Of a stretch of 64,000 nt of DNA, positions 25,234 to 60,011 are shown piece after piece. The stretch lies in the NCBI GenBank assembly GCA_965263035.1, contig OZ253580.1, forward strand, positions 2,048,001-2,112,000, written 5' to 3'. Both the position numbers and the translations under genes were made by a program. The DNA comes from Acidobacteriota bacterium. Lineage in GTDB: Bacteria; Acidobacteriota; UBA6911; RPQK01; JAJDTT01. Within the stretch, counting starts at the first letter, position 1; the number at the start of each line of letters is the position of its first letter. The notes under the pieces are model-generated. The model was not told the origin of the DNA and made no database searches. It worked only from the letters and a program-made list of their open reading frames with translations.

Positions 25234-25713
25234 CTCCCACCGGAGATCCAGCTGGATCGCTATCTGTTAGGCGCGGAAAAGCTGATGGCCCAAAAAGACC
25301 ATCAGGCCGCTCTGGACATAGTGGGCAAAATTCTGGCTCTGCAAAAAGACCACCAGCTGTCCTTACCCGAGGAGTTCCACTTCACACACGCGGAACTGGC
25401 GTTCGCTGCCGGGTCGTTCCAGGCGGCACTGGAGGCAGTGAACAAGTATCTGATGAGAGCCGGGAGGGGCGGAGAGTTTTACCGAGAGGCGCTGGATTTG
25501 TTGGATGACGTGGAGACGGCCCTACCCGAGCGGAACCGCTGCACCGGCCAGCCTAAGGGATCGGAATGCTGGATGGCGTTAACCGACAGGCCGGGATGCT
25601 ACGTCTGGGATCCTAACTTCCAGCCGGACGCGACTGTGACCTGGACCACCGAGTGTCCCGAGGGCCTGGGTGGCGGCAGATTCGGGGTCGGTCGGGTTGG
25701 CGGATTATCATAG
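25234..25713 (+). pseudogene. Truncated secreted protein (TPR-like N-terminal domain + Cys/Trp-rich module)
   Basis: LPPEIQLDRYLL...FYREALDLL then CWMALTDRPGCYVW..VTWTTEC; becomes low-complexity at about 25670, next to the dif-like site. Confidence 0.55.
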
Positions 25714-25738
25714 AGCGATAAAGTACATTATCGGACGG
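25711..25738. other. dif-like tyrosine-recombinase site (11-6-11)
   Basis: TAGAGCGATAA-AGTACA-TTATCGGACGG. Confidence 0.55.
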
Positions 25739-25743
25739 GCTCT

Positions 25744-25860
25744 TTCCGGGGATGGGGGGAGCTTCCGGAGACGGGGGAAGCTTCGGGAAGAACGGGGATC
25801 GTTCGGAAGAGCGGGGGGCGTTCGGAATGAGGAGGACGCTTTCCGAAGAGCGGGGGGGCG
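25744..25860 (+). repeat. Six degenerate 19-20 bp tandem direct repeats
   Basis: Units start at 25744, 25763, 25782, 25802, 25821 and 25841; consensus about TTCsGrAGAnnGGGGrnns. Confidence 0.6.
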
Positions 25861-26219
25861 GCTCAAGGCGGGGACCCGACCCTCACCGGGCCCGGAAGGG
25901 GCGGCGCCGCAGCACCCGCGTGGAACGGACCGCGGAGGCTCGACCTCAGCCGCCGGGCCGGGCAGCGGAGGGGACCGAATCGGACGCTCGCCCGCTGGCG
26001 GGGGGGTGCGCGCACCGCGAGGCGGCGCTCCCAGGAACTCCGAGCCCCCGCGCCGGCGCCGGGGGTCTCTAAGGCCGTCGATAACTGCAACACACTCGCC
26101 CGGGGGTGTGTTGCACTCGCTGGGGTCGCTCACTATCTTTCATTTATCCCTGCGGGCAGGTCCGGACGGGTAGGAATTCGAGGGTCCGGACCGGGAGGAT
26201 CGGAGCCGGAGCCCCCCCC

Positions 26220-27002
26220 TCAGCGAGGACGGGGCAGCGAGCTTTTGATGGCGACGTCCTGAATCAGCGACCGGAGCGCGTCGCTCGCCCACAGCGACGC
26301 ATGCCGGGAACTCATCGAGGGCAGGCCCAGCACCCGGGTCCCGGTCAGATACCCGGCCCCGGCGTAGTAGTTCCCCTTCAGCCGGCCGAGCTTGACCCGC
26401 CGCGACGTGCGGGAGTCCGGATCCACTCTCCACTCGCCCACGATCTCCATCCCGAAGGCGCTCTTGACGGCCGCCCAGGGGGAGCGGCCCGGGCCGTTGC
26501 CGTCACACAGGATCCACTCCGGGGCCACCGAGATCAGCGCCTTCGCCAGCCAGTCGACACTGTAGACCCAGAGCTCGAGAGGGAGATCTCCCACCCGGGC
26601 CGTCCGGTAGGCGCAGACATTGAAGCAGGCCGTGGCTCGAAGCGCCCCTTCCCACTCGGACCCGTAGAGAGTCTCGAACAACCGGTGCACCCGCTTTTGA
26701 TGGGGAGAGTACGGGTCCCCGTCCGGCCAGCGCTCATCCAGATGGGCGTTCCACGGCGGCTCCCGCCGTTCATAGGGCGCCCCCAGATAACCCTCGTCCC
26801 GGTCGTGCGCCAGGGCCTCACGGCCACCTGAAGGGTTGACGCCGAGAAAGACCACGGAGGAGCCCTGCTCGATGCAGCGGGCGTCCCCGGACCAGCACTT
26901 GAACCCATGGAGGTTCCGAGGGGACTTCGTCAAGAGCACCCGGGCCATCCGTTCCAGCATGGCCGCAGCCAGAAAACCCTTCCTCGAGATCCGTTTCACC
27001 AT
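26220..27002 (-). CDS. Uracil-DNA-glycosylase-superfamily protein (260 aa)
   Basis: AAGGAGG RBS; VVFLGVNPSG (motif A-like), CFNVCAYRT, PEWILCDGN, VLGLPSMS (motif B-like). Confidence 0.6.
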   Translation of the reverse strand: MVKRISRKGFLAAAMLERMARVLLTKSPRNLHGFKCWSGDARCIEQGSSVVFLGVNPSGGREALAHDRDEGYLGAPYERREPPWNAHLDERWPDGDPYSPHQKRVHRLFETLYGSEWEGALRATACFNVCAYRTARVGDLPLELWVYSVDWLAKALISVAPEWILCDGNGPGRSPWAAVKSAFGMEIVGEWRVDPDSRTSRRVKLGRLKGNYYAGAGYLTGTRVLGLPSMSSRHASLWASDALRSLIQDVAIKSSLPRPR

Positions 27003-28201
27003 CGTGCCCATCCTCCTTGCGGAGCCCACAAAAGGGAGAGAAGAGCCGAATTGATCGGCTTCGCCGGCTCGAACGCCCTCGAGGGTAGCTGGATACCTTC
27101 TCACAAGTTCCTGCCTCGAGCGGGCCGGACCGGATCCGCACCGGCCGTCGTTTCCGCCTCTAGAACCCATCGGGCCGCAAGAAGATTCCCCGCCGTAACT
27201 CCGCCCGGCGGGCTCGACGTCCCTGACTTCCGCGCGCAGGGACGTCAGAAGGTCCCGGATGCTGTCGAGCCGGGCTCCTCAGCGCCAGGAGTCGGTCCGT
27301 TTTGCTCTTGTCGGGCCGATTCCGAGAAAAAAGACCTCCGTAGAGGGCCTATGTTGGCCTCGCGCGGGAGGACGAAGGGTTGGATATAGGCCCTTGGGCG
27401 GCGCCCCGGCTCCCGCCGCTCGGGCCCGCGGAAAGAGGATTTCTCAAACCGCCCCCGGCGGTTGTATGGTCAATAGTGGATCCGGGCCTGTACGGGGAAA
27501 ATCCGCCGTCCCGACTTCCGGAACTCGCCGGGCAGTGTCGTGTATTCGGTGGAGTTTGCGGAACACGATAATCGGCCGGCTGAACGAACAATCTCCGATC
27601 TCGGACTTGATACACAGGCCACCGGCGGTCCGCCGCCGCCGCGGGCAGTTCGACTCTCTCAGAGGAGAAGCTGGCCCCAGCCGGTAGAAGGAGAGGGCAA
27701 ATGCAAGACCTGCGAGGGCCGAGGAAGATCCGGTCGGGGCTGGTGATGGTGTGGCCCCACCCTTCGAGAAGCGAGCGCGGCCTACCGGAGCCGGGCCGGC
27801 CACGGCCGCGGGGCCGAGATCCGGCCGAATCTCGCCGCCGTCGGGTGGCTGGTGGAGTTTCAGCCTGGACGGGAAGCCGTTGCGCGCCGTGGTGGTGTCC
27901 ACGGACGAGGAGGCCCACGACGTGGCCCAGGAGTACGTGGACACAGGACAGGGTGACAGGGACACTCCCTAGGATGATGCAATTCTTCGCTGTACGGAGC
28001 ACAATATGTGGGAAAATGATTCGCTGGAATTCCCGATCACGCTCCAAGATCCCATGGCTCCAGGTGTTGCGCGGCAACATCCCAGGGGTAGACACGAGAA
28101 ACGGTCCGTCGTCGGGTCCACCCTCACCATCAAGGGAGAGGTGAGTGGAGGAACGGAGGAGCGGGAGTGACGAGGAACGGAACGGGGTGCCGCTGAGCCG
28201 G

Positions 28202-30556
28202 ATGGACAAGCGAGGTCTCTCGGAGCGCGATATCTGCACGAAGTTCATTACGCCGGCCCTGCGCAGGGCCGGGTGGGACGAGATGTCGCAGATTCGCGAG
28301 GAGGTGAGCTTCACCAAGGGCCGCATCATCGTGCGCGGCAAGCTGGTCACACGCGGACGAGCCAAACGCGCCGACTACATTCTTTACGTCAAGCCGAACA
28401 TCCCGATCGCCGTGATCGAGGCGAAGGACAATTCCCACAGCGTCGGCGACGGCATGCAGCAGGCGCTGGATTACGCCGAGACCCTGAACGTTCCCTTCGC
28501 GTTCTCTTCGAACGGCGACGGCTTCGTGTTCCACGACCGTACGGGGGCCAGCACACCACTCGAGTCGAACCTTCCTCTCGAAGGCTTTCCGTCACCGACC
28601 GATCTGTGGGCGCGCTATCGGGCCTGGAAAGACCTGACGCCGGAAGCCGAGAAGATCGTCCTTCAAGACTATTTCGAGGACGGGAGCGGCAAGACGCCGC
28701 GCTACTACCAGGCCAACGCCGTCAACGCCGCGATCGAGGCCATCGCCAAGGGGCAGGACCGTATCCTGCTCGTCATGGCCACGGGCACGGGAAAGACGTA
28801 CACCGCCTTCCAGATCATCTGGCGGCTGTGGAAGGCGCGGCGCAAGAAGCGCATCCTGTTCCTCGCCGACCGAAACGTGCTCATCGACCAGACGATGGCG
28901 AACGATTTCCGTCCCTTCGGCGGCACGATGACGAAGCTCTCGCGCCGCATCGACACCGCCTACGAGGTCTATCTCGGACTCTATCAGGCGATCACCGGGC
29001 CGGAGGAACACCAGAAGGCCTACCGGAAGTTCTCGCGGGGGTTCTTCGATCTGATCGTGATCGACGAATGCCACCGGGGCAGTGCCGCCGACGATTCAGT
29101 GTGGCACGAGATCCTCGAGTACTTCTCCTCCGCAACCCAGATCGGCCTCACGGCCACGCCGAAGGAGACGAAGTACGTCTCCAACGTCGCCTATTTCGGG
29201 GATCCGGTCTTCTCCTACTCCTTGAAGCAGGGCATCCGCGACGGTTTCCTCGCGCCCTACAAGGTGGTCAAGGTCCATATCGATCGCGACGTGGAAGGCT
29301 ACCGCCCAGAGAAGGGCAAGCTCGACCGCGACGGCAAGGAGGTTGAGGATCGCGTCTACAACTCGACGGACTTCGACCGGACGCTGGTCATCGCCGACCG
29401 GACGACACGCGTAGCGCAGAAGGTCACGGCTTTCCTGAAGGAGAGTGGCGATCGTTTCCAGAAGGCGATCATCTTTTGCGTCGATCAGGAGCACGCCGCG
29501 CGGATGCGTCAGGAACTCATCAACGAGAACGCCGATCTTGCCGAGGACAATTCGCGTTACGTCATGCGGATCACGGGTGGCGATGCTGCGGGACAGGCCG
29601 AACTCGGGAACTTCATCGACCCGGAATCGAAATACCCTGTCCTGGTCACCACATCGCGGCTGCTATCCACCGGCGTCGATGTCCAGACCTGTCGGTTGAT
29701 CGTACTCGACCGAGCGGTGGGGTCGATGACCGAGTTCAAGCAGATCGTCGGCCGCGGTACCCGCGTGCACGAAGACACACGAAAGTTCTACTTCACGCTC
29801 ATCGACTTCCGGCGTGCCACCGTTCATTTCGCGGACCCGGAGTTCGACGGCGAGCCGGTCCAGATCCACGCGCCGGGAGAAGACGATCCGATCGTCCCAC
29901 CCGATGTGCCGCCTACGGACGAGGACGGGCTCGGCGACGACGAGATCATGATCGATGGAGTGGATCCACCACCACCGGGTCCGGGGCCACAGAAGAAAAT
30001 CTATATCGACGGCGTCGAGGTGGCCATCATCGCCGAGCGGGTGACATACCTCGACGGGAACGGCAAGCTGGTGACCGAGTCGCTGCGCGACTTCACGAGG
30101 AAGGCCCTGCGCAGGCGCTTCGCGAGCCTTGACGACTTCCTGAACCGTTGGAACGCCGTCAAGCGCAAGCAGGCGATCATTGATGAGATGGCGGCCGAGG
30201 GCCTGCCGCTGACCGTGATCGTCGAAGAGTTAGGCAAGGATCTCGACCCCTTCGATCTCGTCTGTCACGTTGCCTTCGACGCCAAACCGCTGACCCGCCG
30301 TGAGCGGGCCGAGAACGTCAAGAAGCGGGATGTGTTCACGAAATACGGAGGTCAGGCCCGCGCCGTGCTCGACGCGTTGCTCGACAAGTATGCCGACGAG
30401 GGCATACTCAATCTCGACGACGCCAACGTCCTCAGGATCCCGCCACTCGACAGTCTCGGCACACCGTTGGAACTGGTCCGCGCCTTCGGCGGGAAGCCCG
30501 ATTTCGACCGGGCCGTGCACAATCTTCAGTTCGCTCTCTACCGGGAGATTGCCTGA
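28202..30556 (+). CDS. hsdR: Type I restriction enzyme R subunit (EcoAI/EcoEI-like, type IB)
   Basis: SERDICTKFITP, ADY..IAVIEAK nuclease motif, MATGTGKT, DECHRG, LTATP, QIVGRGTR, EcoEI-type C-terminus. Confidence 0.96.
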   Translation: MDKRGLSERDICTKFITPALRRAGWDEMSQIREEVSFTKGRIIVRGKLVTRGRAKRADYILYVKPNIPIAVIEAKDNSHSVGDGMQQALDYAETLNVPFAFSSNGDGFVFHDRTGASTPLESNLPLEGFPSPTDLWARYRAWKDLTPEAEKIVLQDYFEDGSGKTPRYYQANAVNAAIEAIAKGQDRILLVMATGTGKTYTAFQIIWRLWKARRKKRILFLADRNVLIDQTMANDFRPFGGTMTKLSRRIDTAYEVYLGLYQAITGPEEHQKAYRKFSRGFFDLIVIDECHRGSAADDSVWHEILEYFSSATQIGLTATPKETKYVSNVAYFGDPVFSYSLKQGIRDGFLAPYKVVKVHIDRDVEGYRPEKGKLDRDGKEVEDRVYNSTDFDRTLVIADRTTRVAQKVTAFLKESGDRFQKAIIFCVDQEHAARMRQELINENADLAEDNSRYVMRITGGDAAGQAELGNFIDPESKYPVLVTTSRLLSTGVDVQTCRLIVLDRAVGSMTEFKQIVGRGTRVHEDTRKFYFTLIDFRRATVHFADPEFDGEPVQIHAPGEDDPIVPPDVPPTDEDGLGDDEIMIDGVDPPPPGPGPQKKIYIDGVEVAIIAERVTYLDGNGKLVTESLRDFTRKALRRRFASLDDFLNRWNAVKRKQAIIDEMAAEGLPLTVIVEELGKDLDPFDLVCHVAFDAKPLTRRERAENVKKRDVFTKYGGQARAVLDALLDKYADEGILNLDDANVLRIPPLDSLGTPLELVRAFGGKPDFDRAVHNLQFALYREIA

Positions 30557-30559
30557 GAG

Positions 30560-32011
30560 ATGTCCGTCAGCACCCTCGTCAAGTCGATTCAGAACATCAT
30601 GCGCCAGGATGTGGGCGTCGACGGCGATGCGCAGCGCATCAGCCAACTGTGCTGGATGTTCTTCCTCAAGATCATCGACGATCAGGACCAGGAGCTCGAA
30701 CTTCTCAAGGACGGCTACCGTTCGCCTGTTCCCGTCCGTCTGCGTTGGCGGAACTGGGCCGCCGATCCGGAAGGCATCACGGGCGAGGAACTGCTCGACT
30801 TCGTCAACGGCGATCTCTTTCCGCGGCTGAAGGGGCTCCCGCCCAGGGCCGGCCCTCGCGCGAACGTCGTGCGCGACGTGTTCGAGGATGCCTACAACTA
30901 CATGAAGTCCGGCCAGCTGATGCGGCAGGTCGTCAATAAGATCAACGGCATCGATTTCAACAACCTGGCTGCGCGCCGGCACTTCGGCGACATCTACGAG
31001 CAGATCCTGAACGACCTGCAATCGGCCGGCAACGCGGGCGAATACTACACGCCGCGCGCCGTGACCTCGTTCATGGCGCGGATGATCGACCCGAAACCGG
31101 GTGAGACGCTGTTCGATCCGGCGTGCGGCACCGGTGGGTTCCTCACCTGCTCCATCCGTCATATGCACGAACGCTATGTGAAGCGGCCCGAAGATGAAGC
31201 AAAAATGCAGGCCTCACTGAGGGCGGTGGAGAAGAAGCCGCTTCCCCACATGCTGGCCGTCACGAACATGCTCCTGCACGGCATCGAGGATCCGTCCTTT
31301 CTGTGCCGCGACAACACGCTCGCACGGCCCTACATCTCGTGGGGCCGGGACGAGCGCGTGGACATCGTCCTGACCAATCCACCGTTCGGCGGCAAGGAGG
31401 AGGACGGCATCGAGTCGAACTTCCCGAAGCACTTCCAGACGCGCGAGACGGCGGACCTGTTCCTCGCTCTGATCATCCGGCTCCTGAAACCCGGAGGCAG
31501 GGCTGCCGTGGTCCTACCCGATGGCTCCCTGTTCGGCGAGGGTGTCAAGACCCGGCTCAAGGAGCATCTGATGGAGGAATGCAACCTTCACACCATCGTG
31601 CGCCTGCCGAACTCAGTGTTCCGTCCATACGCCTCGATCGGGACGAACTTGTTGTTCTTCGAGAAGGGCGAACCAACCAAGGATGTCTGGTTCTGGGAAC
31701 ATCTCGTTCCCGAGGGTCAGAAGGCCTATTCCATGACCCGGCCCATCCGGTTGGAGCATCTTGAGGACTGTGCCGCTTGGTGGGGCGGGGCGCAACGCAA
31801 GAGCCGCGAGGAAGGTGGCTATGCTTGGAAGGTGACTGCCGAGGAGATCACGGCGCGCGGGCACAATCTCGACATCAAGAATCCTTATACGGAGGAAGAG
31901 GACTACGGCGATCCCGAGACGCTTCTGGAGGAGTTGATGAACGCCGAGGCCGAGGTGATGTCAGTGCGAGACTGCTTGAAGAGAATCCTGGCCGAGGCGC
32001 TGTTGCGGTGA
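30560..32011 (+). CDS. hsdM: Type I N6-adenine methyltransferase M subunit
   Basis: GEYYTPR, FDPACGTGGF, NPPF. Confidence 0.96.
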   Translation: MSVSTLVKSIQNIMRQDVGVDGDAQRISQLCWMFFLKIIDDQDQELELLKDGYRSPVPVRLRWRNWAADPEGITGEELLDFVNGDLFPRLKGLPPRAGPRANVVRDVFEDAYNYMKSGQLMRQVVNKINGIDFNNLAARRHFGDIYEQILNDLQSAGNAGEYYTPRAVTSFMARMIDPKPGETLFDPACGTGGFLTCSIRHMHERYVKRPEDEAKMQASLRAVEKKPLPHMLAVTNMLLHGIEDPSFLCRDNTLARPYISWGRDERVDIVLTNPPFGGKEEDGIESNFPKHFQTRETADLFLALIIRLLKPGGRAAVVLPDGSLFGEGVKTRLKEHLMEECNLHTIVRLPNSVFRPYASIGTNLLFFEKGEPTKDVWFWEHLVPEGQKAYSMTRPIRLEHLEDCAAWWGGAQRKSREEGGYAWKVTAEEITARGHNLDIKNPYTEEEDYGDPETLLEELMNAEAEVMSVRDCLKRILAEALLR

Positions 32012-33699
32012 AAGCCGACCGCCTGCTCGCGCTCTACGACCGCGTTGCGGACGCGCCGGACGCCGTTGGCCGCCTGCGCCGGTTCGTGCTGGATCTCGCC
32101 GTGCGGGGGAAGCTCGTGGAGCAGGATCCGGCGGATGAACCGGCGTCGGAACTGCTGAAACGGATTGCGGCCGAAAAGGCGCGAATGGTGAAGGCGCGGG
32201 AGATCAGAAAACCCCGCAATTTGTCGAACGGCGAGGACTTGGTGGCACCCTTCGAGATTCCGGCCACTTGGTGCTGGCGCCGCCTCGATACCATTGGAGC
32301 AATCGTCGGTGGTGGCACACCATCTGCTGGCGATCCCAGGAACTTCTCGGAACCGGGAGAGGGTATCGCATGGCTAACACCGAAAGACCTCGGCGGTTAC
32401 GGCAACCGATACATTGAACGCGGCAGCCGCGATCTATCGGCGAGAGGCTTGCATTCATCGTCGGCCACGCTCATGCCCGCAGGAACCGTCCTCTTTAGTA
32501 GCCGTGCGCCGATTGGTTACGTGGCAATCGCGGCAAACCCAGTTGCGACGAATCAGGGGTTCAAATCCGTCATCCCGTATGTGTCTGATTGCTCTAGGTA
32601 CGTCGCTTTGGCGATGCAGACATTCGCGCCTGAAATCGAGGTCAACGCGCCGGGCACGACATTCAAGGAGGTTTCAGGAAGGATCGTCTCCGGCGTGCCT
32701 TTCCCGCTTCCACCCCTCACCGAGCAGCACCGTATTGTCGTCAAGTTCGACGAACTCGTGGCTCTTTGCGAGCGGCTGGGAGAAGCGCGCACCGCGCGTG
32801 AGGACACCCGCGACCGGCTCACCAAGGCTAGTCTGACCCGTCTGAACGCACCCGACGTAGACGTGCCGACATTTCGTTCTCACGCACGTTTTGCCGTCGA
32901 TGCCCTGCCCGCGCTGACCGCCCGTGCCGATCAGGTCAAGCACCTGCGCCAGACGATTCTCAACCTCGCCGTGCGGGGAAAGCTGGTGGAGCAGGATCCG
33001 AACGCCACTCCAGTAGGACCCCTATTGGCGCACCAGAGGATACCGATTTCGGATTCGAAATGGTTTGAAATCCCTGCGTCATGGGCTTGGGTAAGTGTCG
33101 GAGCGGTGGCCGAATCACGCCTGGGTAAAATGCTCGACAAAGCCAAGAACACAGGCAGCCCGCGAAGATACCTGAGAAATGCCAACGTCAGATGGTTCGA
33201 TTTCGATCTGTCGGACGTTCTGGAAATGAGATTCGAAGACACGGAGCTTCCGGAGTTTTCGCTCCGACCGGGGGACGTGCTGATTTGCGAGGGGGGCGAA
33301 CCAGGTCGAGCTGCCGTATGGGATGAGCGCGAGGACGACATCTACTTTCAAAAGGCGATTCACAGAGTTCGTTTCTTGGACATCGTAGATGGTCAGTACT
33401 TCGTGGACGCGCTTCGATCCAGTGCCGATGATGGGCGGTTAGCAGAGTATTTCACTGGGACCACAATTAAACACTTCACGGGCACGGCCTTACGGGCGTA
33501 TGTGTTCCCGCTGCCACCCGTTGCTGAGCAGCGCCAAATCGTCGCCAAGGTCGATGAACTCATGGCGCTCTGCGATCGTATGGAGGCCGGTCTCGCTGCC
33601 GAAAATGGCACCCGCGGTCGCCTTCTCGAATCCCTTCTTCATGACGCGCTGGCATTCGCCACATGCGAAGCTGGGACCACCAAGAGGTTTGAGGGATGA
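32008..33699 (+). CDS. hsdS: Type I specificity subunit
   Basis: GTG overlapping the hsdM stop; two AVRGKLVEQDP and two PLPPxxEQxxIV conserved regions flanking two TRDs. Confidence 0.95.
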   Translation: MKADRLLALYDRVADAPDAVGRLRRFVLDLAVRGKLVEQDPADEPASELLKRIAAEKARMVKAREIRKPRNLSNGEDLVAPFEIPATWCWRRLDTIGAIVGGGTPSAGDPRNFSEPGEGIAWLTPKDLGGYGNRYIERGSRDLSARGLHSSSATLMPAGTVLFSSRAPIGYVAIAANPVATNQGFKSVIPYVSDCSRYVALAMQTFAPEIEVNAPGTTFKEVSGRIVSGVPFPLPPLTEQHRIVVKFDELVALCERLGEARTAREDTRDRLTKASLTRLNAPDVDVPTFRSHARFAVDALPALTARADQVKHLRQTILNLAVRGKLVEQDPNATPVGPLLAHQRIPISDSKWFEIPASWAWVSVGAVAESRLGKMLDKAKNTGSPRRYLRNANVRWFDFDLSDVLEMRFEDTELPEFSLRPGDVLICEGGEPGRAAVWDEREDDIYFQKAIHRVRFLDIVDGQYFVDALRSSADDGRLAEYFTGTTIKHFTGTALRAYVFPLPPVAEQRQIVAKVDELMALCDRMEAGLAAENGTRGRLLESLLHDALAFATCEAGTTKRFEG

Positions 33700-33808
33700 A
33701 GTACTTGGCCCGGGAGGGCACGGAGGGGACACACTCTAACCAGGAGCTTGACTACTGCGGTGCGCCCCACGTCCGGCCCAGCCGGGATGGTGTCGCGAGG
33801 ATAAGGCC

Positions 33809-49447: not shown

Positions 49448-49509
49448 TGATCTGGACCGGTTTTCAAAATATCATCATTGCGTGATTCTGGCCTCTGTTG
49501 CTGGCTTCC

Positions 49510-49538: not shown

Positions 49539-49844
49539 ACGATTGGTCGTTGGTGGGTCAAAGCGTTTCGACAAGCCTCGCTACCTACTGGAACTCGACA
49601 AGGCGCCCGAACAGGTTGCAGGATGCGGTTGTAACTGTTCACGTGGATACCCCGCATGTCGGGTTTCCTGCTGAATACAACAGCCATGAACTCGGCAAGG
49701 GGTAGCGCCCCTCGCTTGTGGCGAATAGGCAGGGCCTCTCCGCGTCTGCGTGAATGGTTGCAAGGCCCGACACCTTGGGCGGGTCTTGAGCGCGAGCCCA
49801 GATCTGGGAGGGAAGCATGAATTCATGGGGGATTATATACGAAA

Positions 49845-51106: not shown

Positions 51107-51860
51107 CAGCCCGTGGCAAAAGTCCGGGAAGAGCCAGATCTCTGAAATAAAATGACACTATGGCCATGGGAAAGAAACCGTCTGCGGGACGGCAACGGAA
51201 GATGTGGGTGGCGGCGGAGAAACTGCCTCGGAGTCCGGGGCATCCCTTCTACGAGCGGCTGAATCGGGTGCTGGAGAAAGCGGGGTTCGACGCTTTCGTG
51301 GAGGGACTGTGCGCGCGGTTTTATGCCGACGGGACCGGGCGCCCGAGTCTGCGCCCCGGACGGTACTTCCGGATGCTGTTGTTGGGGTACTTCGAAGGGC
51401 TGAACTCGGAACGGGCCATCGCATGGCGAGTGGCGGATTCGATGAGTGTGCGGGCTTTTCTGGACTTGGATCCGGAGGAGACGCCCCCGAATCACTCCAC
51501 CTTGTCGCGCACCAGTTCGGCACGGGAGGGTTGCGTCGGATCTTCGTCCGGGGCCACGCCAACGTGCGCAAGCGACTGCTGATCCATGTCTGCGGATTCA
51601 ATCTGGGATTGCTGCTGCGCCATCTGACGGGGGTGGGTACGCCCCGCAGTCTCCCGGGCCGCGGTCAGGCACGTCTTTTTACGCTTTTGGGGGCGCGAAC
51701 CGGTCGCTGGATCGGCTGGGATCGGCTCTGGGAGCGTTTCTGGGCGTCGATCCGGCCCGATTCACTGTTTTGGGCTCCTCGGATTCATCAATAAACCATC
51801 TCAACATCAACTCACAGAAAGAACATTAGTCGGAGAAATTGGGGTTTTTGCCACGGGCTG
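51107..51860 (+). mobile_element. Internally deleted IS1182/IS5-like element (754 bp) with TTAG target duplication
   Basis: TTAG|CAGCCCGTGGCAAAA ... TTTTGCCACGGGCTG|TTAG; transposase N-terminus (GRPSL..YFEGLNSER..HSTLSRT) fused out of frame to the C-terminus (GGLRR..NLGLLLR). Confidence 0.85.
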
Positions 51861-53193
51861 TTAGTCGACCTCTCCCTGCGAACAAACCAGGTCCAAAACA
51901 CCGTGTTGAATACGAAGAGCCTGCTAACTGCTTCGCAGTTAGCCCGGGTTATAGGCGACAACCCGATCCCACCATTTCCATCGAAAGTGAGCTTCCAGAG
52001 CGGGCCCAGAAGCCCCAGTTCGGAGCCTTATGCGTAGGCCACCAGACCGTGCGAACCGACAGACACATGGCCAAACGGGAGGCCAGTACAGGGGAGAAAA
52101 GTCCCACGGGAAAAAGAGAATTGGACCCGGGAGGGGTTGGAGGTGGAAACGGGTGCTGCAAAGTTGGGACGGGTAGGGGCATCCGAACGGGCCGTTCAGG
52201 TCTTGTCCGTGCTGGCTCAGGCCGCCAGTCCGTTGCCTGATTCGCTTCGACTGCCATGCTGTGTTTCAGCGGATGCCCCCCTCTACTTATAACTTTCTCA
52301 AACTCCAGGATGATTGATAGAAGAAAATGAACGGGGAGCCATACCCCCCTGAACCCCCTTACTCCAACTTTCCTGTTTTTCCCTTTCCCAACTGGAACAG
52401 GAACCGGGGCCGGGGCCGGGGAAAGAGGGGTAGGGGTACGAAAGACCCCGTCTGCCTCTCCTCCCTTCGGTCGGAAAGCCAGAGGGGAGTCAAGATCCTC
52501 GCGCGCACGCGAGAACCGGCTCCATCTGACTTCCCTTGGTCTTTGTCCCGCTAGATCAGGAATTGCCCGCTAGCGGCAGTCCAGCACGTTTCCGTGGCGG
52601 CGATTGTACCCGCGCACCCCTCCGGCCCTGGACCCAGCTTCGGGGCAGGACGACCTGTTTACCCGTTGCCTTGGGGCTGCCGTGCGCACCGTGAGGGTCC
52701 CGTAGTGCGCCGTCGATCCCGCTGTTGGAGATCGCCTTGATCGCGCCTGGCCCGCGCATAACCCACAACGACAGGCGCAAGACGAAACTGCACCCGGAAT
52801 TGAAGTGTTCCGTGAGTTGAGTCTCATCCTGCCTGGGATTCTAAATCCCTGGGGTGACAAAGGCAGGGCACGTAGAGTTTGGATGAGACTCCGTGGTGAT
52901 GGTCGTCGCGCCCTGCCCGACTCTCTGCCAACTGTAGCAGAATCCGGTGACGCGGTTTGCAAGGGAGACACCCCCGGCTCTGAGCCTTGGCCGGGGGGTC
53001 TTCGAGACCTGGTGAGCCTGACGACTCCCGCCCAAACTCCCAGACAGACCAAGCGGAAGAACGCCTCCAGGCCCCGCCAGAGTACCACGCCGAGGTTGAC
53101 ATACTGGATCGATAAGATGGTCGCCTTGCTGCTGATCGAAGTGTTTGAAATGGCTGATCCGGGACAAACGCCAAGCGCCTGTAAGGACTTTCA

Positions 53194-53832
53194 ATGAGCT
53201 ATTGGTGTTCCCTGGTTACTTCACTTTCCAAAGCGCCAAGCAGCGAAACGATTTGGACTGTCTTGGCAATTATGGCGTCGGCTTTGATTGCGGTGGGAGC
53301 TGCGTTCCTTTCGGCGTGGCTGACGATGAAGAACGCTCGCAAGCTTCAGGACCGCGAACGCAGGCGCGACGAAAAATCAGTCGCTGCGCTTGTAAGTGCG
53401 GATCTCTACGGAAAATTGAGTATGTTAGTCCGGTTGCTGCCGCGACTGAACTTGTCACACGTAGACGTAGAACGCCTGGGACGGAGCATTATTAACCTAG
53501 AACAGAGGCTAACTGGCAGAGTGGTTCTTGAAGCCGCGCTACCAAAATTGGGCTCACTGGGCCACCGAGACACTGCGAATTTGCTCGGTGCCTTCGATGG
53601 CCTTGCGCTTGTAGTAGATGAAGCGCGCCGAGTAGTTGAAGCGAGCCGCGTAACACCTGAACCGATTCCTGTGGAATTGGTCACGCAAATGAAAGAAACC
53701 GCACACCACGTCGGTCTTGTTTTATTCTCGCTGTGGAGACGTTACGAAATAGACCGCCCCGGTCCTTTCGAAAAAACAGGGCTCGATCTGGAGTCACGCG
53801 GGCTTGAGTTCTTAAAGACTCTTGGGTTTTAG
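53194..53832 (+). CDS. Hypothetical protein with N-terminal TM helix
   Basis: IWTVLAIMASALIAVGAAFLSAWL followed by a charged helix; lower GC. Confidence 0.65.
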   Translation: MSYWCSLVTSLSKAPSSETIWTVLAIMASALIAVGAAFLSAWLTMKNARKLQDRERRRDEKSVAALVSADLYGKLSMLVRLLPRLNLSHVDVERLGRSIINLEQRLTGRVVLEAALPKLGSLGHRDTANLLGAFDGLALVVDEARRVVEASRVTPEPIPVELVTQMKETAHHVGLVLFSLWRRYEIDRPGPFEKTGLDLESRGLEFLKTLGF

Positions 53833-53849
53833 GTGTGATGGAAGAACGC

Positions 53850-53936
53850 TGGTCCCCGGCGGAGGACCCGAACCTCCACGGGCCGAAGCCCACCAGATTT
53901 TAAATCCAGCGCGTCTGCCAATTCCGCCAACCGGGG
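53850..53936 (-). tRNA. tRNA-Leu(UAA), atypical
   Basis: CCCCGGT-TG-GCGGAATTGGCAGACGC-G-CTGGA-TTTAAAA-TCTGG-long variable arm (GGGC-TTCG-GCCC)-GGAGG-TTCGGGT-CCTCC-GCCGGGG-A-CCA; 87 nt. Confidence 0.85.
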
Positions 53937-54201
53937 ACAGACATTTTCAGCTGGACTGTCAGCCGGGTTCCCCTATAATGGCTGGTCAATTATTGAGAAT
54001 CGATTGCCAATCCTGTGGTGTGTGTTGGGTCCAGGGCCTGTTAGTCCTGGTAAATGGAACGATTCGGGAGATAATGCAGTCCTCAGCATTTTTTGGGCGT
54101 CGGTTCGAAATCCTATCTTTTTGAACCCTAGCCCCCCAGGAGGGGGCAGGTCAGCTTCTCTTGGACCGTAGAACCAGAGAAACCCTCCGATATCTCCCAG
54201 A

Positions 54202-54229
54202 AAGTCCGTTAATTTCAGTTATTGGAAGG
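54202..54229. other. dif-like site (11-6-11), direct repeat of 59984-60011
   Basis: AAGTCCGTTAA-TTTCAG-TTATTGGAAGG. Confidence 0.6.
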
Positions 54230-54488
54230 CCTCCAGAGTGCGGAGAGGGGCAGCGTCGTGAAGTTCAGTGCGGATGTCCCGCGACTCGGAACGGATGGAC
54301 CGGGGTCGGGAACTCTGGGCTGCGGAGGAGGAATCGGATCCCACAAAATGCGGCGCTACACGCTTGAGAGTCCGGGCGGTTGCCCGGAGCGTGGCCTCTT
54401 GGCGCCGGCCGGGAATCGGTGTCGGTAAAGTACGTTACCCACAGAGTAATTTTGGCTGGGCAAGGATGTCAAGAGGAGGGAACCGTCA

Positions 54489-54962
54489 ATGGCTATCTGG
54501 CAAGCGATGAAAGGGGCCAACGAAAACCCAAAGCAGGAGTGGATTTGCAACGATCTCCGGCATCAGCACTTCAGCGAGGACACAGGCCGCCGGTTAAGGA
54601 AGCATGTGAAGAAAGGTGACCTCCTGCTGATTTACTTCCCCGGGCGCGTGAACAGGGTCTACATGGGTCTCCAGAGGGCCGCCGAGGATGGGCCGCGTGT
54701 GTTGGAACCTGCGGTTCCAGGGGCAGTTGACTGGCCCTGGGGACTCCGGGTGGAAGGCCATTGATGGATTCCGGTCCGACGGTTGGGGATCAGCCTCCAC
54801 GAATCGGCAATCTATTTCCCGAGAAGACCTCAAATAGTTCGATCTGGTCTGGCGCCGGTGGATCACTGGGGCTCCAGGTCGTCGATCCAAACGCTCATCG
54901 ATGAGATCCGAGAGCGAGGTAAAGACCCTTCGACTTGGAAAACGTGGCCGAGATCCCTCTGA
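54489..54962 (+). pseudogene. EVE/PUA-like domain protein interrupted by one in-frame TGA
   Basis: GAGGAGG RBS; VKKGDLLLIYFPG; the frame stays open for about 65 codons after TGA 54762-54764. Confidence 0.45.
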
Positions 54963-55028
54963 CTCGAAAAATCGAGGCCGTAGGCGGCCTGTGTTGGACG
55001 ATCTCGACCGTACCAAGGGTAGGCTTAA

Positions 55029-55191
55029 GGAAGGTCTGATTAAGTCAGCGGCCTTCACGATAATTCTTCCATCGGCATTGAGTGGAGGGATAGAGGATGG
55101 AGCAGCGGACGTTCGCAGATCTGGAATATGAGGCCAAGAAGCGGGTGACCCGTCGGGAGAAGTTTCTGGCTCGCATGGAACGGTTGATTCC
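55029..55191 (+). mobile_element. IS5-family left end with truncated transposase
   Basis: TTAA|GGAAGGTCTGATTAAG; [24 protein letters not shown]. Confidence 0.85.
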
Positions 55192-55258
55192 ATCGTCCCT
55201 GCGGATAACTCCGCCCCCTTTACTACGGCTCAGACTCTGGACTACCTGGTCACGCTCC

Positions 55259-58222
55259 TTATCTATTCCTGAGACATTCTCTCTGGAATCGGCACCATCG
55301 GGAGGGTGGTGAAGATCCGGTTGTCGGCATCGAGTTCCACGGCCACTCCGGTGAACCGGTCCGGTGCCATGCAGCGCACCGAACCCACGAAATCCGACGT
55401 ATCGGTGCGGGTGATATCTCCTCGATGTACCGGGCCTCCTGTCCATTGGCCTCCAGAGGGATCGCCACCGATTCGAGCACGGCGCCGTCTTGCATCAATT
55501 GGCAGCTCACCACCATCGCTTCCTCTCCCAGGTTGTGGATCGCCGCCGCGGTATTGATTCCTCCTGCCTGGCGGCGAGCCGGGAAGATCGCATCCCGGAC
55601 GGGTAGACTGACTCCCACCCCGGCGACTCCGATCTCCGGACTGTCAAAGCGCAAGACCCCACCTATGGGACCGTCCGCCAGGACCCGAACCGAGCCGGTC
55701 ACCAACGGCCCTCGTCCATGGGTCGAGATCGTGAGTTCCCCCAGTGGGGCAACGTCCGTCTGAACGGTCAGGGCTCCATCCGCGCGGACCTCAAGGTCTT
55801 CCCCGGCGTCCACCACCAGTTCCGGGGCAATGAGATCGCCCTGCTTGTCGAAAAAGTAGAGGGCCGGCTGGATGGGGGTGGCCGCAACATTCACGATCAC
55901 GATCTCAGACGTGGTACCGGCCCCATTGGCGAAATGCGCGAAGTCCAGGGCGTCGTCGCAGCGGTCCCGCTCCATGCCCGGCCGCAGCTGCCGTCCGGCA
56001 ACCTGGGCCTCAAAGCCCGCCTCGCACGGTGCCGCCGTCCGCCCAAACCGCGCCATCAAAGCCTGCGGCAGCGGGTCGCTGTTCCTGATCGTTCCGGTCG
56101 CCTCCGCCCTCGTGATGGAGAGCGTCTGGGACGTGTCATCGCACAGCCGTGCATTGCTGATCTTGACCTTCACGGTCTCGCCGTCGTCGTTCACCGAGTC
56201 GTCGATGATGCGGACGAAGGGCTTGTCCACCCGTTTTCCGATCTGCATCCAGTACGTGGCTTTCGGGAACTTGAGGTAGTCCATTCCTTCCGTGGCGGTG
56301 CCGCCCGAGATGGTCTCGAAGTCGTAACACACATAGTCGTCATGCTTCCGCGAGAGCCTGACTCTGAAATCGAGCCACCCGTCGTCCTCGTCCCCGGTCG
56401 CGTCTTTGATCCCAATGGTCAGACCCGGCACGTTGGTCGTGGTGGTCGGCGGCGCGGTGATCGTTCCCGTCGCCTCGGCGGTCGCGATGTTGAGCACCCT
56501 AATTACGTTGCCGTAGGCATCGAACTCGCGCGCGTTGCTGAGCCTTACCATCACCGTCTCGTCGTCGTCCTCGTCCGCGTCCTCAATGAGCGCGAAGCCC
56601 ATCTGCGTGGTCGTCTCTCCATACGGAATGACGTGGGTGTAGACGTGCGGCCAGTAGTCGACGCCTTCGGTGGCGGTGCCTCCCGAAGTAGTCTCAAAGT
56701 CGACCTTCACCGTGTGCGGCGAAGCTGGTGAGAGCGTGACATCGAACAGGAGGTGGCCGTCGTTCTCGGCGGCGCTGGCGTCCGCGATCGAGAGTCTCGG
56801 TGGCGAGCTCCCCAACACGAGACTGACCCTGACTTCCTGGCCGTCCGGCCAGACCAGGTCGGGGGGCAACTGGCCGGCGGGATAGTGCCATAAATCGCCC
56901 CTGCTGCCGTCATCCGACTCCATGTCCGTTGTAAACGTGCGCTCGCCAACGGTGACCACCGTGCCGCGCGGCACACGCGGGAAGGAGCCGAAGTAAAAGT
57001 AAGCACGGGACAGTTCCTCATAGGTGTGCACCGTCCAGACGTTGAAGTTTTCGCCGCCGTATTCGATCTGGTCGTCGTCGAGCGAGCCGAACTTGTCATA
57101 CTCATACCCGACCAAACGGCCGTCGCCTTCGGCGTCTGCCACCGTCATCGTCGCGCACCAGTCGTTGACCGCGGGACAGGGGCCCGGCAACACCACCACT
57201 GTCACTGTCCCGTTCCGGGGATACGCGTCGCTCGTGAGCGGGCCCTCGGCGTGGCCCCGGGAGTCGGTGACGCTCACCTTCACCTTGATCTGCTTGCCCA
57301 GGTCGGACGCGGTCAGCGTGTAGGTTTCGGAGGTCGCCCCGGGGATGTCGGTGTCGGTGGAGCCGTCCACCCGCACCCACTGGTAGGTGAACGTGGGGGT
57401 CGTCGGCAGCCCATCCAGGTCCTCGATGTCGTCCGTCGCCGCCGTCAGCGTCTTGCCCACCTGCCCCCCACCGGAAATCGTCGGCTGGCCGGTGGCGGGA
57501 GCGTCGGTCACAACGAGCGACACGGCGACGTCGGTCCCGGCAGTCCAACTCAGGGTGGTGTTATTCCACTTCCATTGAGTCTTGCCGCCGTTGATCTGGT
57601 TGGCCTCCTTCAGAACGAATTCCTCGCCGTCAATCACCAGTGTCAGACCCTGTGTGGCGGCTGTGGCACCCGTATTGAGCCTAAATAGCAAGACGCTGTT
57701 CTTGGTAAAAAATTTAGTGACCGCGTAGGTCGTCCCGTCATCGGTGAAGTCGTCGCTCAACGTGTTCGAGTTGCTGCATTTTCTATTCCCCGTCGAGCTG
57801 TTGTCACAGCCCAACGGTACGGGGGTCCCTGAGAATGTGGTCCTCGGCGTCAGCGTGGCCGTCCAGATTGTGGTCTGGGCTTGCGCGGGGAGGGCCGCGG
57901 CAAACAGCATGGCGAAAGCCAGGAGGAATGTGGCTGCTAGGGTGTGCCGCGCGCGGGACTCTGGCGGATTTACGCTCGGTCCATATACGACACGTACGTC
58001 GTCACGCATCTCCTTAACCAATCCAGTTTCGGCATACCTCACGTGCGAATAAGTCAATAAGAGCTCATTGCTTCCGACATCAACACCCGTGTCAACCTGT
58101 TCGCGTGGCTGCATACTCAACGACCCCCCGTGGCTGAAAAAAGAACCTGCTGTTCCAATGACCGTATTGGCGTCTCCGGCGGCGAGGTATCGGTCACCTC
58201 GACGGTGCCGGTGCCCCGGCAC
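55259..58222 (-). CDS. Large mosaic surface protein with Calx-beta domains, probably degenerate
   Basis: Signal-like LLAFAMLFAAALPAQAQ; ATGQPTISG..TYQW Ig-like domain; two Calx-beta repeats (LSIADA..FDVTLS..GTATEG.DY); frameshift near 55420. True start uncertain. Confidence 0.7.
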   Translation of the reverse strand: MPGHRHRRGDRYLAAGDANTVIGTAGSFFSHGGSLSMQPREQVDTGVDVGSNELLLTYSHVRYAETGLVKEMRDDVRVVYGPSVNPPESRARHTLAATFLLAFAMLFAAALPAQAQTTIWTATLTPRTTFSGTPVPLGCDNSSTGNRKCSNSNTLSDDFTDDGTTYAVTKFFTKNSVLLFRLNTGATAATQGLTLVIDGEEFVLKEANQINGGKTQWKWNNTTLSWTAGTDVAVSLVVTDAPATGQPTISGGGQVGKTLTAATDDIEDLDGLPTTPTFTYQWVRVDGSTDTDIPGATSETYTLTASDLGKQIKVKVSVTDSRGHAEGPLTSDAYPRNGTVTVVVLPGPCPAVNDWCATMTVADAEGDGRLVGYEYDKFGSLDDDQIEYGGENFNVWTVHTYEELSRAYFYFGSFPRVPRGTVVTVGERTFTTDMESDDGSRGDLWHYPAGQLPPDLVWPDGQEVRVSLVLGSSPPRLSIADASAAENDGHLLFDVTLSPASPHTVKVDFETTSGGTATEGVDYWPHVYTHVIPYGETTTQMGFALIEDADEDDDETVMVRLSNAREFDAYGNVIRVLNIATAEATGTITAPPTTTTNVPGLTIGIKDATGDEDDGWLDFRVRLSRKHDDYVCYDFETISGGTATEGMDYLKFPKATYWMQIGKRVDKPFVRIIDDSVNDDGETVKVKISNARLCDDTSQTLSITRAEATGTIRNSDPLPQALMARFGRTAAPCEAGFEAQVAGRQLRPGMERDRCDDALDFAHFANGAGTTSEIVIVNVAATPIQPALYFFDKQGDLIAPELVVDAGEDLEVRADGALTVQTDVAPLGELTISTHGRGPLVTGSVRVLADGPIGGVLRFDSPEIGVAGVGVSLPVRDAIFPARRQAGGINTAAAIHNLGEEAMVVSCQLMQDGAVLESVAIPLEANGQEARYIEEISPAPIRRISWVRCAAWHRTGSPEWPWNSMPTTGSSPPSRWCRFQRECLRNR

Positions 58223-58368
58223 TCTCCCGTGGAACTCCCGCCCGTGCGGCCAACGTTGTCAGCCAGCGACCGCCTCTCCTGCGACCGTTCCAGGGCAAGG
58301 CCATCGTCGAACTCTTATTTTTACTCTCAAGAATTGGACATACTTAGCGTAAATTGCGGCCTGAGTCC

Positions 58369-58383
58369 CTACCAATTTGGTAG
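58369..58383. promoter_or_regulatory. Perfect palindrome, candidate operator of the adjacent LuxR regulator
   Basis: CTACCAA-T-TTGGTAG in the AT-rich region upstream of the surface-protein gene. Confidence 0.55.
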
Positions 58384-58454
58384 TTTAGATTTGGGAGAAA
58401 AAGGAAGCGGCCGGGAACCGGGCCGCCCCGCTGAGAACGCTGGCAGCCCTACGG

Positions 58455-59591
58455 TTACCCGAACTCGGCGATCGACAGCACCAGCCGCACCAGGTCCGCC
58501 TGCCGGGAGACGGGTTGTTTCTGGTAGATTTGCTTCAGGTGCCAATAGATGGAGCCTGGGGTGCGCCCCGTGGCCTCGGACAGGTCACGGACGCTCTTGC
58601 CTTCCGCCAACCAGACCGCTACCTGGCTCTCCATCGGCGTCAGCCCGAGGGTCCTGGCCACCAAATCGGGGTCGACACGATGCTGGCTCCCCGGCTCGAC
58701 AATCAGGACCAGCGCGGCGACATTCCGCGCTCCGTAGTCCGGTTGGGGAACACCGACGGGTTTGACGTGCACCACGAACGGCGGCAAGCCGGACGGGCGG
58801 TGGAGCAGCATCGACCCGCTGACCGTGACGGCGACGGAGGCCGGCAGCGCGTCAGCCACCAACCCCTCGAGGCGGAGCTGGTCGTCCGGATTGCGGGCAC
58901 CCAGGACCCCATCCCGGTCCGACAACCCATCGCCGTGTCGAAGGATGCTACGGGCGCGGCTATTCGCTTCCATGATCTGCCCACGCCGGTCCAGGTGGAG
59001 AACACCGATCCGAGGGTTATCGAGCAGGGCGGCCACGGTCGTTTCGTGCGCCTCGGCGCGGACCAGCGCCTGCCGGACGCGGATAAATTGTCGAATATGG
59101 GGCATTAGCGCTTGGACCATCGCGATCTCGGAAGACCCCCAGCCATCCGAGGCGACGGGATCAGCGAGAGACCAAGTCATGCGAGAGCCCCCCGGCCCGT
59201 CCAGGAGCACGTTCAAGCCATTCTGATACTTGGACCGGAGTAATGCCTCGTTGTAGGTACGCGAGGTTTTCAACTCCTCGGACGTGTACAGGTCTTTAAT
59301 ATGCACCAGACGGCTGGCGGGCAGTTGCAACTGGCGCGGTATGGCTTCGTTGATGGGATGGTAGACTTCGAGGTACTCACGCTCCAGATCTTCGCGGCGC
59401 TGCCCTCGGTAGTAGAGCCCGACGAAGAGCGCCCGGACGTCGTCCTTCGGGCCTTCGCCGACCATGAGGGCGTTTCCCGTCAGGTTACAAGCCTCGTCGA
59501 TCAGCGCCGAGGTGGCCGGCCAGTGGGCATCGTCGAGCATGGCGTTGTACAACGACGCCAGGATGCGCTCGAACGTGTCTGGGTCACTCAT
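58455..59591 (-). CDS. LuxR-type HTH transcriptional regulator with GAF/PAS-like sensor
   Basis: LYNAMLDDAHW, LMPHIRQ, PAS-like GVLHLDRRGQIMEAN, LTPMESQVAVWLAEG..HLKQIYQK..RQADLVRLV. Confidence 0.88.
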   Translation of the reverse strand: MSDPDTFERILASLYNAMLDDAHWPATSALIDEACNLTGNALMVGEGPKDDVRALFVGLYYRGQRREDLEREYLEVYHPINEAIPRQLQLPASRLVHIKDLYTSEELKTSRTYNEALLRSKYQNGLNVLLDGPGGSRMTWSLADPVASDGWGSSEIAMVQALMPHIRQFIRVRQALVRAEAHETTVAALLDNPRIGVLHLDRRGQIMEANSRARSILRHGDGLSDRDGVLGARNPDDQLRLEGLVADALPASVAVTVSGSMLLHRPSGLPPFVVHVKPVGVPQPDYGARNVAALVLIVEPGSQHRVDPDLVARTLGLTPMESQVAVWLAEGKSVRDLSEATGRTPGSIYWHLKQIYQKQPVSRQADLVRLVLSIAEFG

Positions 59592-59765
59592 GACGGTCAT
59601 TCCTTCAGCAACGCCAGGCTGAACCGTACAGAAGCACTCGCCATATGCACGGCCCACTGTCCACGACACCGGAGCCTGACGGGTGAAGGTCGCAGAGGGG
59701 TTTCTTGCGGTGGAATTATAAAATGGGTCACTGACCTAACCGACAGGTCCCCTCCCTTGTTTCCC

Positions 59766-59883
59766 ACCCCAATGGGCTCACCGGGTGGGGATAGAAGAAG
59801 ACGGAGCAGGATCGCGGCTGGCGCTGGAAACGGGGGCGTCAGGGACGTGGTTTAGATTACGATAAAGTGCAATTATCGTATCC
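59766..59883. repeat. Inverted homologue of the recombinase-upstream region, ending in a TAA-N7-TTA site
   Basis: 59824-59865 vs reverse complement of 40359-40400: 34/42 identities; 59766-59797 vs reverse complement of 40410-40441: 26/32; core TACGATAA-AGTGCAA-TTATCGTA. Confidence 0.7.
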
Positions 59884-59983
59884 TGATCCCTCCTGACGGG
59901 GACAGGCCGTCTTCTTCTGACCCGTGTTTCCGGTCGGCTTGGGGCTGATTCGCACCCCCCGGCACCCTCCCTTTTTCCAGAGA

Positions 59984-60011
59984 ACGTCCGTTAATTTCAG
60001 TTAACGGACGT
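59984..60011. other. Perfectly palindromic dif-like site (11-6-11)
   Basis: ACGTCCGTTAA-TTTCAG-TTAACGGACGT. Confidence 0.65.

Follow-up and report, generated by a model that had tools for sequence, protein, structure and literature searches.

The gene xerS lies immediately adjacent to its site difSL, according to a section of a review (PMC5357621), and in Acinetobacter, as described in parts of three papers (PMC13141974, PMC6449649, PMC12907356), short dif-like sites termed pdif bound accessory-gene modules in varying combinations, which are found mainly on plasmids, also on chromosomes, and are moved by XerCD. In Mycoplasma, excerpts of two reports (PMC2268961, PMC5634654) describe an Xer-type recombinase, Xer1, which lies beside a multigene family of variable surface proteins at vpma and switches it through site-specific recombination. 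Here, six dif-like sites and a stand-alone Xer-like tyrosine recombinase are described from a stretch of 64,000 nucleotides of an Acidobacteriota bacterium (the window; positions 2048001-2112000 of G000, a single-contig genome of 6.2 Mb). On balance, the six sites are probably the core sites of a self-contained site-specific recombination system. They are very probably recombinase sites at which blocks of DNA were exchanged, and across the genome such sites very probably organise modules of leucine-rich-repeat (LRR) genes, small open reading frames (ORFs) and clustered regularly interspaced short palindromic repeats (CRISPR), rather than the defence cassettes of the island that occupies much of the window. 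This reading is built on the anatomy and excess of the sites, their coupling to the recombinase gene across phyla, the co-variation of site and gene, the exchange of flanks and the variable cargo at an orthologous locus, all of which are taken as established.

Dif-like sites in the window and across the genome

A sequence-only reading of this DNA had listed five sites with an arm-TAA/TTA-arm layout. All five can be read directly in the sequence, the coordinates given for them being 2-5 nt too low, and a sixth site of the same design, A3 at 54423-54440 (plus strand; TCGGTAAAGTACGTTACC), had been overlooked; it forms the exact joint of two duplicated segments. The A-type site has its core at 25716-25733 (plus strand; CGATAA-AGTACA-TTATCG) and, with a degenerate flank, spans 25678-25736. 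A2 (40344-40366, minus strand; TACGATAAAGGATATTATACGTA) lies 6 nt upstream of the recombinase ATG (CAT at 40335-40337), so the adjacency proposed earlier stands but the distance of 4 bp does not. A variant of the B type at 54204-54227 (plus strand) keeps its left arm and spacer intact (GTCCGTTAA-TTTCAG); positions 54204-54221 read GTCCGTTAATTTCAGTTA, and TTGGAA stands in for the right arm. The last two sites belong to a composite module at 59830-60009 (plus strand), in which a flank (59830-59857) is followed by A1 (59858-59880, plus strand; TACGATAA-AGTGCAA-TTATCGTA), a 105-nt spacer and B (59986-60009, plus strand; GTCCGTTAA-TTTCAG-TTAACGGAC). B is separated by 45 nt from the first repeat, at 60055, of a type I-E CRISPR array of 16 repeats (60055-60997, minus strand), whose trailer points towards B and whose leader points towards cas2/cas1. 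The closeness of this site to the trailer, earlier put at 43 bp, is thereby confirmed.

Such A+T-rich palindromes in a window of 62% G+C are far above chance. Measured against dinucleotide-preserving shuffles of the window, CGATAA-N5-8-TTATCG is matched twice (0.00 expected), the B 18-mer twice (0.01 expected) and ATAA-N5-8-TTAT three times (0.21 expected), a count of three being reached in none of 100 shuffles. The proposal that the sites fall at module borders holds for 59858 and 59986, and loosely for 40344 and 54204; the sixth site, at 54423, also sits at such a border, and at 25716 the border is the edge of the flank. The ORF before the latter site (24847-25713) is truncated relative to two paralogues and joined to the degenerate flank and the A-type site. 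A gene break had been placed at 25711; the truncation is real but lies about 60 nt before the core, at the left edge of the conserved flank. Beside A2, a conserved flank of about 25 nt and a segment of about 165 nt, named U (together 40367-40556, minus strand), occur elsewhere between A sites and the starts of LRR genes.

Genome-wide, the sites form families of dif-like palindromes with the general pattern CGNTAA-N6/7-TTANCG, and their half-sites are of one design (CGATAA in A, CGGTAA in A3 and CGTTAA in B). The A1 23-mer at 59858 is exact in six places, with several near copies, giving about 10 A1 loci, while the B 24-mer at 59986 is found at 28 loci, placed after paralogous LRR protein genes and after the CRISPR trailer. 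A1 and B are often 128 nt apart, their relative orientation being fixed, and the recurrent longer module begins with a flank of about 30 nt, after which come A1, about 105 nt of spacer and B. Within each family, conservation covers the spacers as well as the arms. The B spacer TTTCAG is exact in 24 of the 28 loci, the left arm in nine and the right arm in 11 (exact matches counted by eye from aligned copies); A spacers occur as the variants AGTATA and AGTATG.

Among 41 related genomes, a tally that includes the unpublished G016, which has no match, A2-type 17-mers are present in 14 and the reversed control gave no hits. By their coordinates, these A2-type sites adjoin recombinase genes or their remnants. 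B is confined to the genus, with matches in all nine of its genomes (23 copies in G000, two to nine in each relative) and in none of the 32 genomes outside it; reversed-pattern controls gave no matches genome-wide. Coordinate comparison places B sites no more than a few kb from recombinase genes or remnants in all eight relatives in the genus with hits.

The dif-like core layout claimed earlier is borne out in that the inner ATAA/TTAT is shared with the dif seeds, inner ATAA-N6-TTAT, quoted in the consulted portion of Kono et al. 2011 (PMC3025954), although the arms here are symmetric. A candidate chromosomal dif of the type ATAA-TGAATA-TTATGTAAACT, with an asymmetric outer arm, lies at 5,875,250 of the genome, near the cumulative GC-skew maximum at 5.84 Mb. 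This separate candidate at the skew maximum, together with the symmetry of their arms, argues that the A and B sites are not chromosomal dif.

A recombinase coupled to its own site

The recombinase gene (39354-40337, minus strand) encodes 327 aa with a SAM-like and a catalytic domain. The catalytic R, K, HxxR, H and Y, read from the alignment, align to those of XerD (PDB 1a0p), its closest solved relative. Against NCBIfam models the protein scores 113 bits for XerD (cut-off 329.6), 111.9 for XerC (335.15), 53.2 for the integron integrase model TIGR02249 (265) and 19.9 for NF011946 (435), and it is also well under the cut-offs of the XerS and XerA models. Assignment as XerC/D or as an integron integrase was rejected on these cut-offs.

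The genome holds 12 paralogous recombinase loci or fragments, and in all nine paralogues that keep their 5' end an A-type site lies 6-7 nt before the ATG; at one of the nine, a 168-nt miniature inverted-repeat transposable element (MITE) landed between site and ATG (163783-163951 of the genome). In a recombinase subfamily of 61-63% identity, comprising two paralogues, the A3 variant takes the place of the usual A site. Across four paralogous loci with 82-92% DNA identity, the homology covers the gene and about 20-55 nt upstream of it and ends at the stop codon. Five further genomes of the order (G001, G002, G003, G007 and G035) likewise have this site in front of the gene.

This coupling extends well beyond the order. 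From a collection of 185,579 species, 38 homologue loci were taken, and 22 of them have the site before the gene, in one orientation throughout. These 22 loci come from Acidobacteriota, Bryobacterales, Vicinamibacterales, Opitutales, a metagenome-assembled genome (MAG) labelled Heliobacteriaceae and a delta-proteobacterial MAG. Twelve loci have the exact core ACGATAAAGTATGTTATCGT; they come from all of these groups except the Heliobacteriaceae-labelled MAG, which is one base off. The other 16 loci all belong to Planctomycetota or Verrucomicrobiae, and at least seven of them carry a different perfect palindrome, TAGACAA-N6-TTGTCTA, in the equivalent position. Around the gene in other phyla the recombinase alone is constant, its adjacent genes being of toxin-antitoxin (TA), SIR2, HEPN, RES, AAA-ATPase or IS200 type. 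The proposed tie between the sites and the stand-alone recombinase is therefore upheld, in paralogues as in homologues. Since the site accompanies the gene from phylum to phylum and varies together with its subfamily, it is best explained as the binding site of that enzyme. Judged from the sequences, A would be bound by the recombinase, and B presumably by it or by a paralogue.

The literature searched holds no description of this family of recombinase and site, which is no proof that none exists. In Candidatus Marinacidobacterales MAGs (loci L083-L109), the final 50 or so codons of a homologous recombinase gene are present in dozens of copies; these were rejected as recombinase genes and belong to an unrelated, longer repeated element, apparently a mobile element with a captured fragment of a recombinase gene.

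Flank exchange, cargo and competing explanations

A record of exchange is seen at A3 in the window, where 618 nt of left flank match a locus at 2.914 Mb with 99.7% identity and 478 nt of right flank match a locus at 6.157 Mb with 96% identity. At 2.914 Mb a recombinase gene comes after the same left flank (L1) and core; at 6.157 Mb a standard flank precedes the core and the same right flank (X). Each of the two identities stops inside the 17-nt core. The locus at 6.157 Mb carries, between A3 and A1 in direct orientation, a 480-nt segment (6,156,987-6,157,469 of the genome) with a 91-aa ORF, whose window counterpart (54489-54764, plus strand) has a strong ribosome-binding site. At other loci the standard flank abuts A1 directly, and the arrangement looks as it would if a small circle had inserted at an A site. 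Between the A1-spacer-B unit of the window and 6156834-6156989 the identity is 98% and ends at the outer edges of A1 and B, and the flank to the right of B, the CRISPR trailer, recurs at 155.5 kb with an identity that begins inside B.

More generally, 50 of 87 pairwise alignments around 25 A sites and 66 of 92 around 28 B sites begin or end at the site, compared with 0-6 alignment ends in equally wide control windows at other offsets. Short alignments of the site alone are uninformative; what is informative are the near-identical pairs and the 27 one-sided alignments of at least 100 nt that stop at an A site (17 on the right and 10 on the left, of the 87, by eye). Homology between paralogous loci does break at the sites, where segments of 96-99.7% identity end at cores. 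Runs of assembled contigs (X1, X8, X9 and X10) were compared with 40200-60100, and every joint traces to paralogous loci: that from 54896 to 59856 to the 6157-kb locus, and those from 52280/52338 to 53890/52968 to the duplicates at 2.91 and 5.67 Mb. These joints are neutral on excision, speaking neither for it nor against it. Two segments that include a 212-aa ORF and tRNA-Leu(taa), 50416-52338 and 52968-54439, have duplicates of 95-99% identity at 2.914-2.920 Mb and 5.669-5.671 Mb. The tRNA-Leu(taa) gene itself (53850-53936, minus strand) lies in a 1.47-kb segment duplicated at 2914429-2915901, and Rfam at gathering thresholds gave no match other than tRNA. A T-arm-like stretch, GGTTCGAAATCC (54100-54125), which is uncalled as tRNA and lies at a distance of 165 nt from the tRNA-Leu(taa) gene, is possibly what remains of a tRNA.

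Cargo of the sites is seen at 6.146-6.194 Mb, where large genes, co-oriented and on the other strand, come after a recombinase remnant with A2. Leucine-rich repeats are present in six of the nine proteins scanned, eight B and five further A-type sites are interspersed among the genes, all 14 listed sites have one orientation, and many of the genes have B about 40 nt past their stop codon. A Calx-beta protein in the window (55259-58222) has a C-terminal region of about 230 aa that belongs to the same paralogous family. The type I-E CRISPR-Cas locus is framed alike, with B behind the trailer and an A2-like orphan, just outside the window, about 60 nt upstream of cas3. Furthermore, an orthologous locus between tRNA-Leu(tag) and a recombinase with conserved downstream genes holds essentially unrelated DNA in three species (13.2 kb in G000, 5.3 kb in G007 and 4.0 kb in G001), and each version contains A or B sites; loci anchored by the recombinase do therefore carry variable cargo. 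Shuffling had been proposed for defence and surface-protein cassettes, and it is the surface LRR, small-ORF and CRISPR modules to which it would apply, not the individual defence cassettes.

Solitary CRISPR repeats or repeat-like units occur outside the array, in the window at 49510-49537 (minus strand) and at 140353, 155561, 5660583 and 2115339 of the genome. Those at 155561 and 5660583 abut B sites, and in G007 a B site and a solitary repeat lie next to tRNA-Leu(tag). B, 45 nt and a terminal repeat recur at 155.5 kb and in G007 as solitary repeats; B as a mark of CRISPR repeats as targets was considered, and this recurrence fits array remnants equally. Within the array, the spacers at 60449-60481 and 60510-60542 are adjacent and identical, and three trailer-side repeats are degenerate.

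Several observations weigh against recombination at these sites. No recombination product and no excised or inverted junction was seen in the assembled contigs. The clustering of alignment ends is partly trivial, because the site is the best-conserved stretch. On its left, the recombinase unit extends 20-40 nt beyond the A core, just as the truncated gene at 25716 stops at the edge of the flank rather than at the core; the conserved flank outside the A core may be part of the functional site or the mark of another kind of junction. A second site was sought 3' of the recombinase stop codon and none was found, and in other phyla there is a single site, with no evident partner, within 6 kb on each side of the gene. 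Sites do not mark off the defence genes themselves, and B is not linked to any one protein.

A purely regulatory role is a serious rival, and one considered unlikely rather than negligible. A would then be a promoter or operator, for a recombinase that represses itself or for another factor, B a hairpin at the 3' end of RNA, and the flanks the product of homologous recombination or gene conversion. The position of A, 6-7 nt from the ATG, fits, as do TATTAT on one strand and TATAAT on the other: promoter or operator function of A+T-rich sites with such -10-like hexamers would explain their position too, which tells against recombination. An A2-like site also stands upstream of cas3, A, the flank and U are conserved jointly upstream of LRR genes, and B, with its place past stop codons, can be folded as an 11-bp hairpin of -15 kcal/mol. 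However, the B spacer is better kept than the arms, which supports strand exchange, where spacers have to match, and would be needed neither in a hairpin loop nor in the operator of a dimer. The 54204 variant, with one arm and the spacer, does not fold as a hairpin, and a simple promoter and terminator scan overlaps no core (0 of 6 sigma-70-like and 0 of 21 terminator-like calls). Nor is a 17-nt core, in which identities of 96-99.7% end, anything but short for homologous recombination, and a site that is near-invariant across phyla, where promoters should differ, and that co-varies with the recombinase subfamily is poorly explained by regulation.

That the A1-spacer-B unit, or B alone, is an element similar to repetitive extragenic palindromic (REP) sequences or MITEs, inserting near gene ends and associated with the recombinase only secondarily, is improbable. 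Its 28 B and roughly 10 A1 loci, the palindromic ends of a unit of about 156 nt, a copy pair of 98% identity and a genome rich in MITEs and insertion sequence (IS) elements would all suit such an element; against it, that pair shows no target-site duplications, the units are found in parts (B alone, A1 alone or A3 replacing A1), B keeps within a few kb of recombinase genes or remnants throughout the genus relatives with hits, and no HUH or DDE transposase is consistently adjacent. Least credible of all is the use of the sites by host XerC/XerD, as in the dif modules of Acinetobacter, which is judged highly improbable. The inner ATAA-N6-TTAT does equal the dif seeds and the modules do carry accessory genes, but the arms are symmetric and have no distinct outer arm of XerD type, whereas the separate dif candidate at the GC-skew extreme has one; every A2 site is coupled to a recombinase gene of its own; and the sites of the array face one way instead of alternating.

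The recombination system favoured here would have as its enzyme the stand-alone Xer-like tyrosine recombinase, with its 12 copies and fragments, and as its cognate site an inverted repeat of 8-11 bp with a 6-7 bp spacer and the half-site CGNTAA, placed directly before the enzyme's own start codon. That site probably also autoregulates the recombinase gene; autoregulation and recombination are compatible, and both would be expected. Solo sites A1, A3 and B, whose spacers are conserved family by family, appear to have multiplied in this acidobacterial genus and would border cargo units on their 5' and 3' sides, namely LRR surface-protein genes, small ORFs and the CRISPR-Cas locus. Strand exchange, as the conservation of spacers suggests, would take place in the spacer, and recombination between sites with the same spacer would delete, insert or exchange DNA on one side of the site, resulting in variable content at loci anchored by the recombinase. 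The system may be active today. A wider interpretation is offered tentatively, as a possibility with less behind it than against it: an Xer-like family that carries its own dif-like site at the start codon across phyla could have grown, in this genus, into a chromosomal cassette platform, an analogue of the integron with simple double-stranded dif-like sites that captures as well as reshuffles surface LRR proteins, small ORFs and a whole CRISPR-Cas locus.

If exchange does occur, it would explain the rearrangement of large surface-protein families and of a CRISPR-Cas locus, by an enzyme of the system's own and very short, recognisable sites, in poorly studied soil and sponge-associated phyla. 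The site variants (A with AGTATA or AGTATG, A1, A3, B and the planctomycete TAGACAA form) might in that case serve as orthogonal tools.

The defence island and described recombination systems

The island around the sites moved as one unit by means of a classical integrase and merely carries several site modules. Its left end is marked by one copy of an 18-bp direct repeat, GGACACCCGTTCCGCCAC (attL, 22412-22429), and its right end by the other, at 2120218-2120235 of the genome, so that the interior runs from 22430 past the end of the window to 2120217 (genome 2070430-2120217, 49.8 kb). Synteny with the genus stops at window position 22429. In all four relatives examined (G002, G003, G005 and G007) the island is absent, the flanking gene is joined directly to the sequence from 2120218 onward, and a single copy of the repeat joins the flanks. 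The far end of the island holds a P4-type integrase with an arm-binding domain and an AlpA gene. The direct repeat, which is not dif-like, the integrase and AlpA genes and the empty site in relatives identify the island as an ordinary integrative element of P4 type, and the annotation of its mobility is corrected accordingly.

Its cargo comprises restriction-modification (RM), ImmA/DUF4411, OLD and AbiJ genes, an AAA_13 ATPase and a complete type I-E CRISPR-Cas system. The genes hsdR, hsdM and hsdS, an ImmA-like peptidase and DUF4411 (28145-35490, plus strand; Pfam) have borders of their own with no bounding A or B sites. Copies of this block (28150-35490), 83-89% identical and cut off at the same sharp borders, are found once in G001 and three times in G004, and the three motif patterns searched have no match in five loci of 11-20 kb each around those four copies. 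No site lies between individual defence systems from 25716 to 40344. The earlier proposal that the sites partition the defence island is therefore abandoned: the borders of the RM/ImmA block lie elsewhere, and the island as a whole is a P4-type element with attachment repeats that are not dif-like.

Other mobile elements are present in and around the window. The 168-nt MITE has well over 100 copies in the genome, with window copies at 13168-13335 and 19905-20011. An IS at 43018-44655, with a DDE_Tnp_1_4 transposase, has about 17 copies at 93-98% identity, and a DDE_3 fragment of 87% identity lies at 49835-50423. A repeat of about 265 nt (38119-38383 and 55026-55191, sharing 166 nt at 92%), with at least 30 copies in G004 and few here, is probably another MITE.

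P4-type islands share with the whole island the arm-binding integrase, AlpA, the 18-bp direct repeat and the empty site; this explanation covers the arrival of the island, not the dif-like sites inside it. The sites invite comparison with the single-recombinase systems XerS/difSL, XerH/difH and XerA/dif, which likewise have one Xer-type recombinase, a nearly symmetric site and a module of gene and site. Those systems have one terminus site per chromosome and serve dimer resolution, whereas here there are dozens of sites and 12 gene copies or fragments, set among variable genes and accompanied by a separate dif candidate. With XerC/XerD-dif the inner ATAA/TTAT arms around a centre of 6-8 bp are shared, but neither the single terminus site nor an equivalog score is found. 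Of the features of simple tyrosine-recombinase systems, the catalytic R-K-H-R-H-Y is present, while arm binding and strand exchange are putative. As in the Mycoplasma shufflons, an Xer-type recombinase lies next to a multigene surface-protein family. Mycoplasma shufflons invert DNA between sites in 5' regions and so move a single promoter; the sites described here, direct repeats within an array, would instead predict excision and insertion.

The pdif- or integron-like character proposed earlier holds for the logic of the system but not for membership of either class. As with pdif modules, genes of TA or defence type neighbour the recombinase in other phyla. However, pdif sites alternate in orientation as XerC/D and D/C pairs and have asymmetric arms, while the present sites are chromosomal, with a recombinase of their own beside a site, symmetric arms and one site orientation. 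The likeness to integrons lies in a recombinase gene beside a primary site, transcribed away from co-oriented cargo, in secondary sites behind many genes, and in content that varies between species at a fixed locus. The attC sites of integrons are long imperfect palindromes recombined as folded single strands. The cores described here are instead of duplex type, 23-24 bp long with arms of 8-9 bp, the recombinase scores 53 bits against the integron integrase cut-off of 265, and the cargo consists of large genes with upstream regions of their own. Should exchange at these sites prove true, it would add a third route of modular gene shuffling to those of integrons and the dif modules of Acinetobacter.

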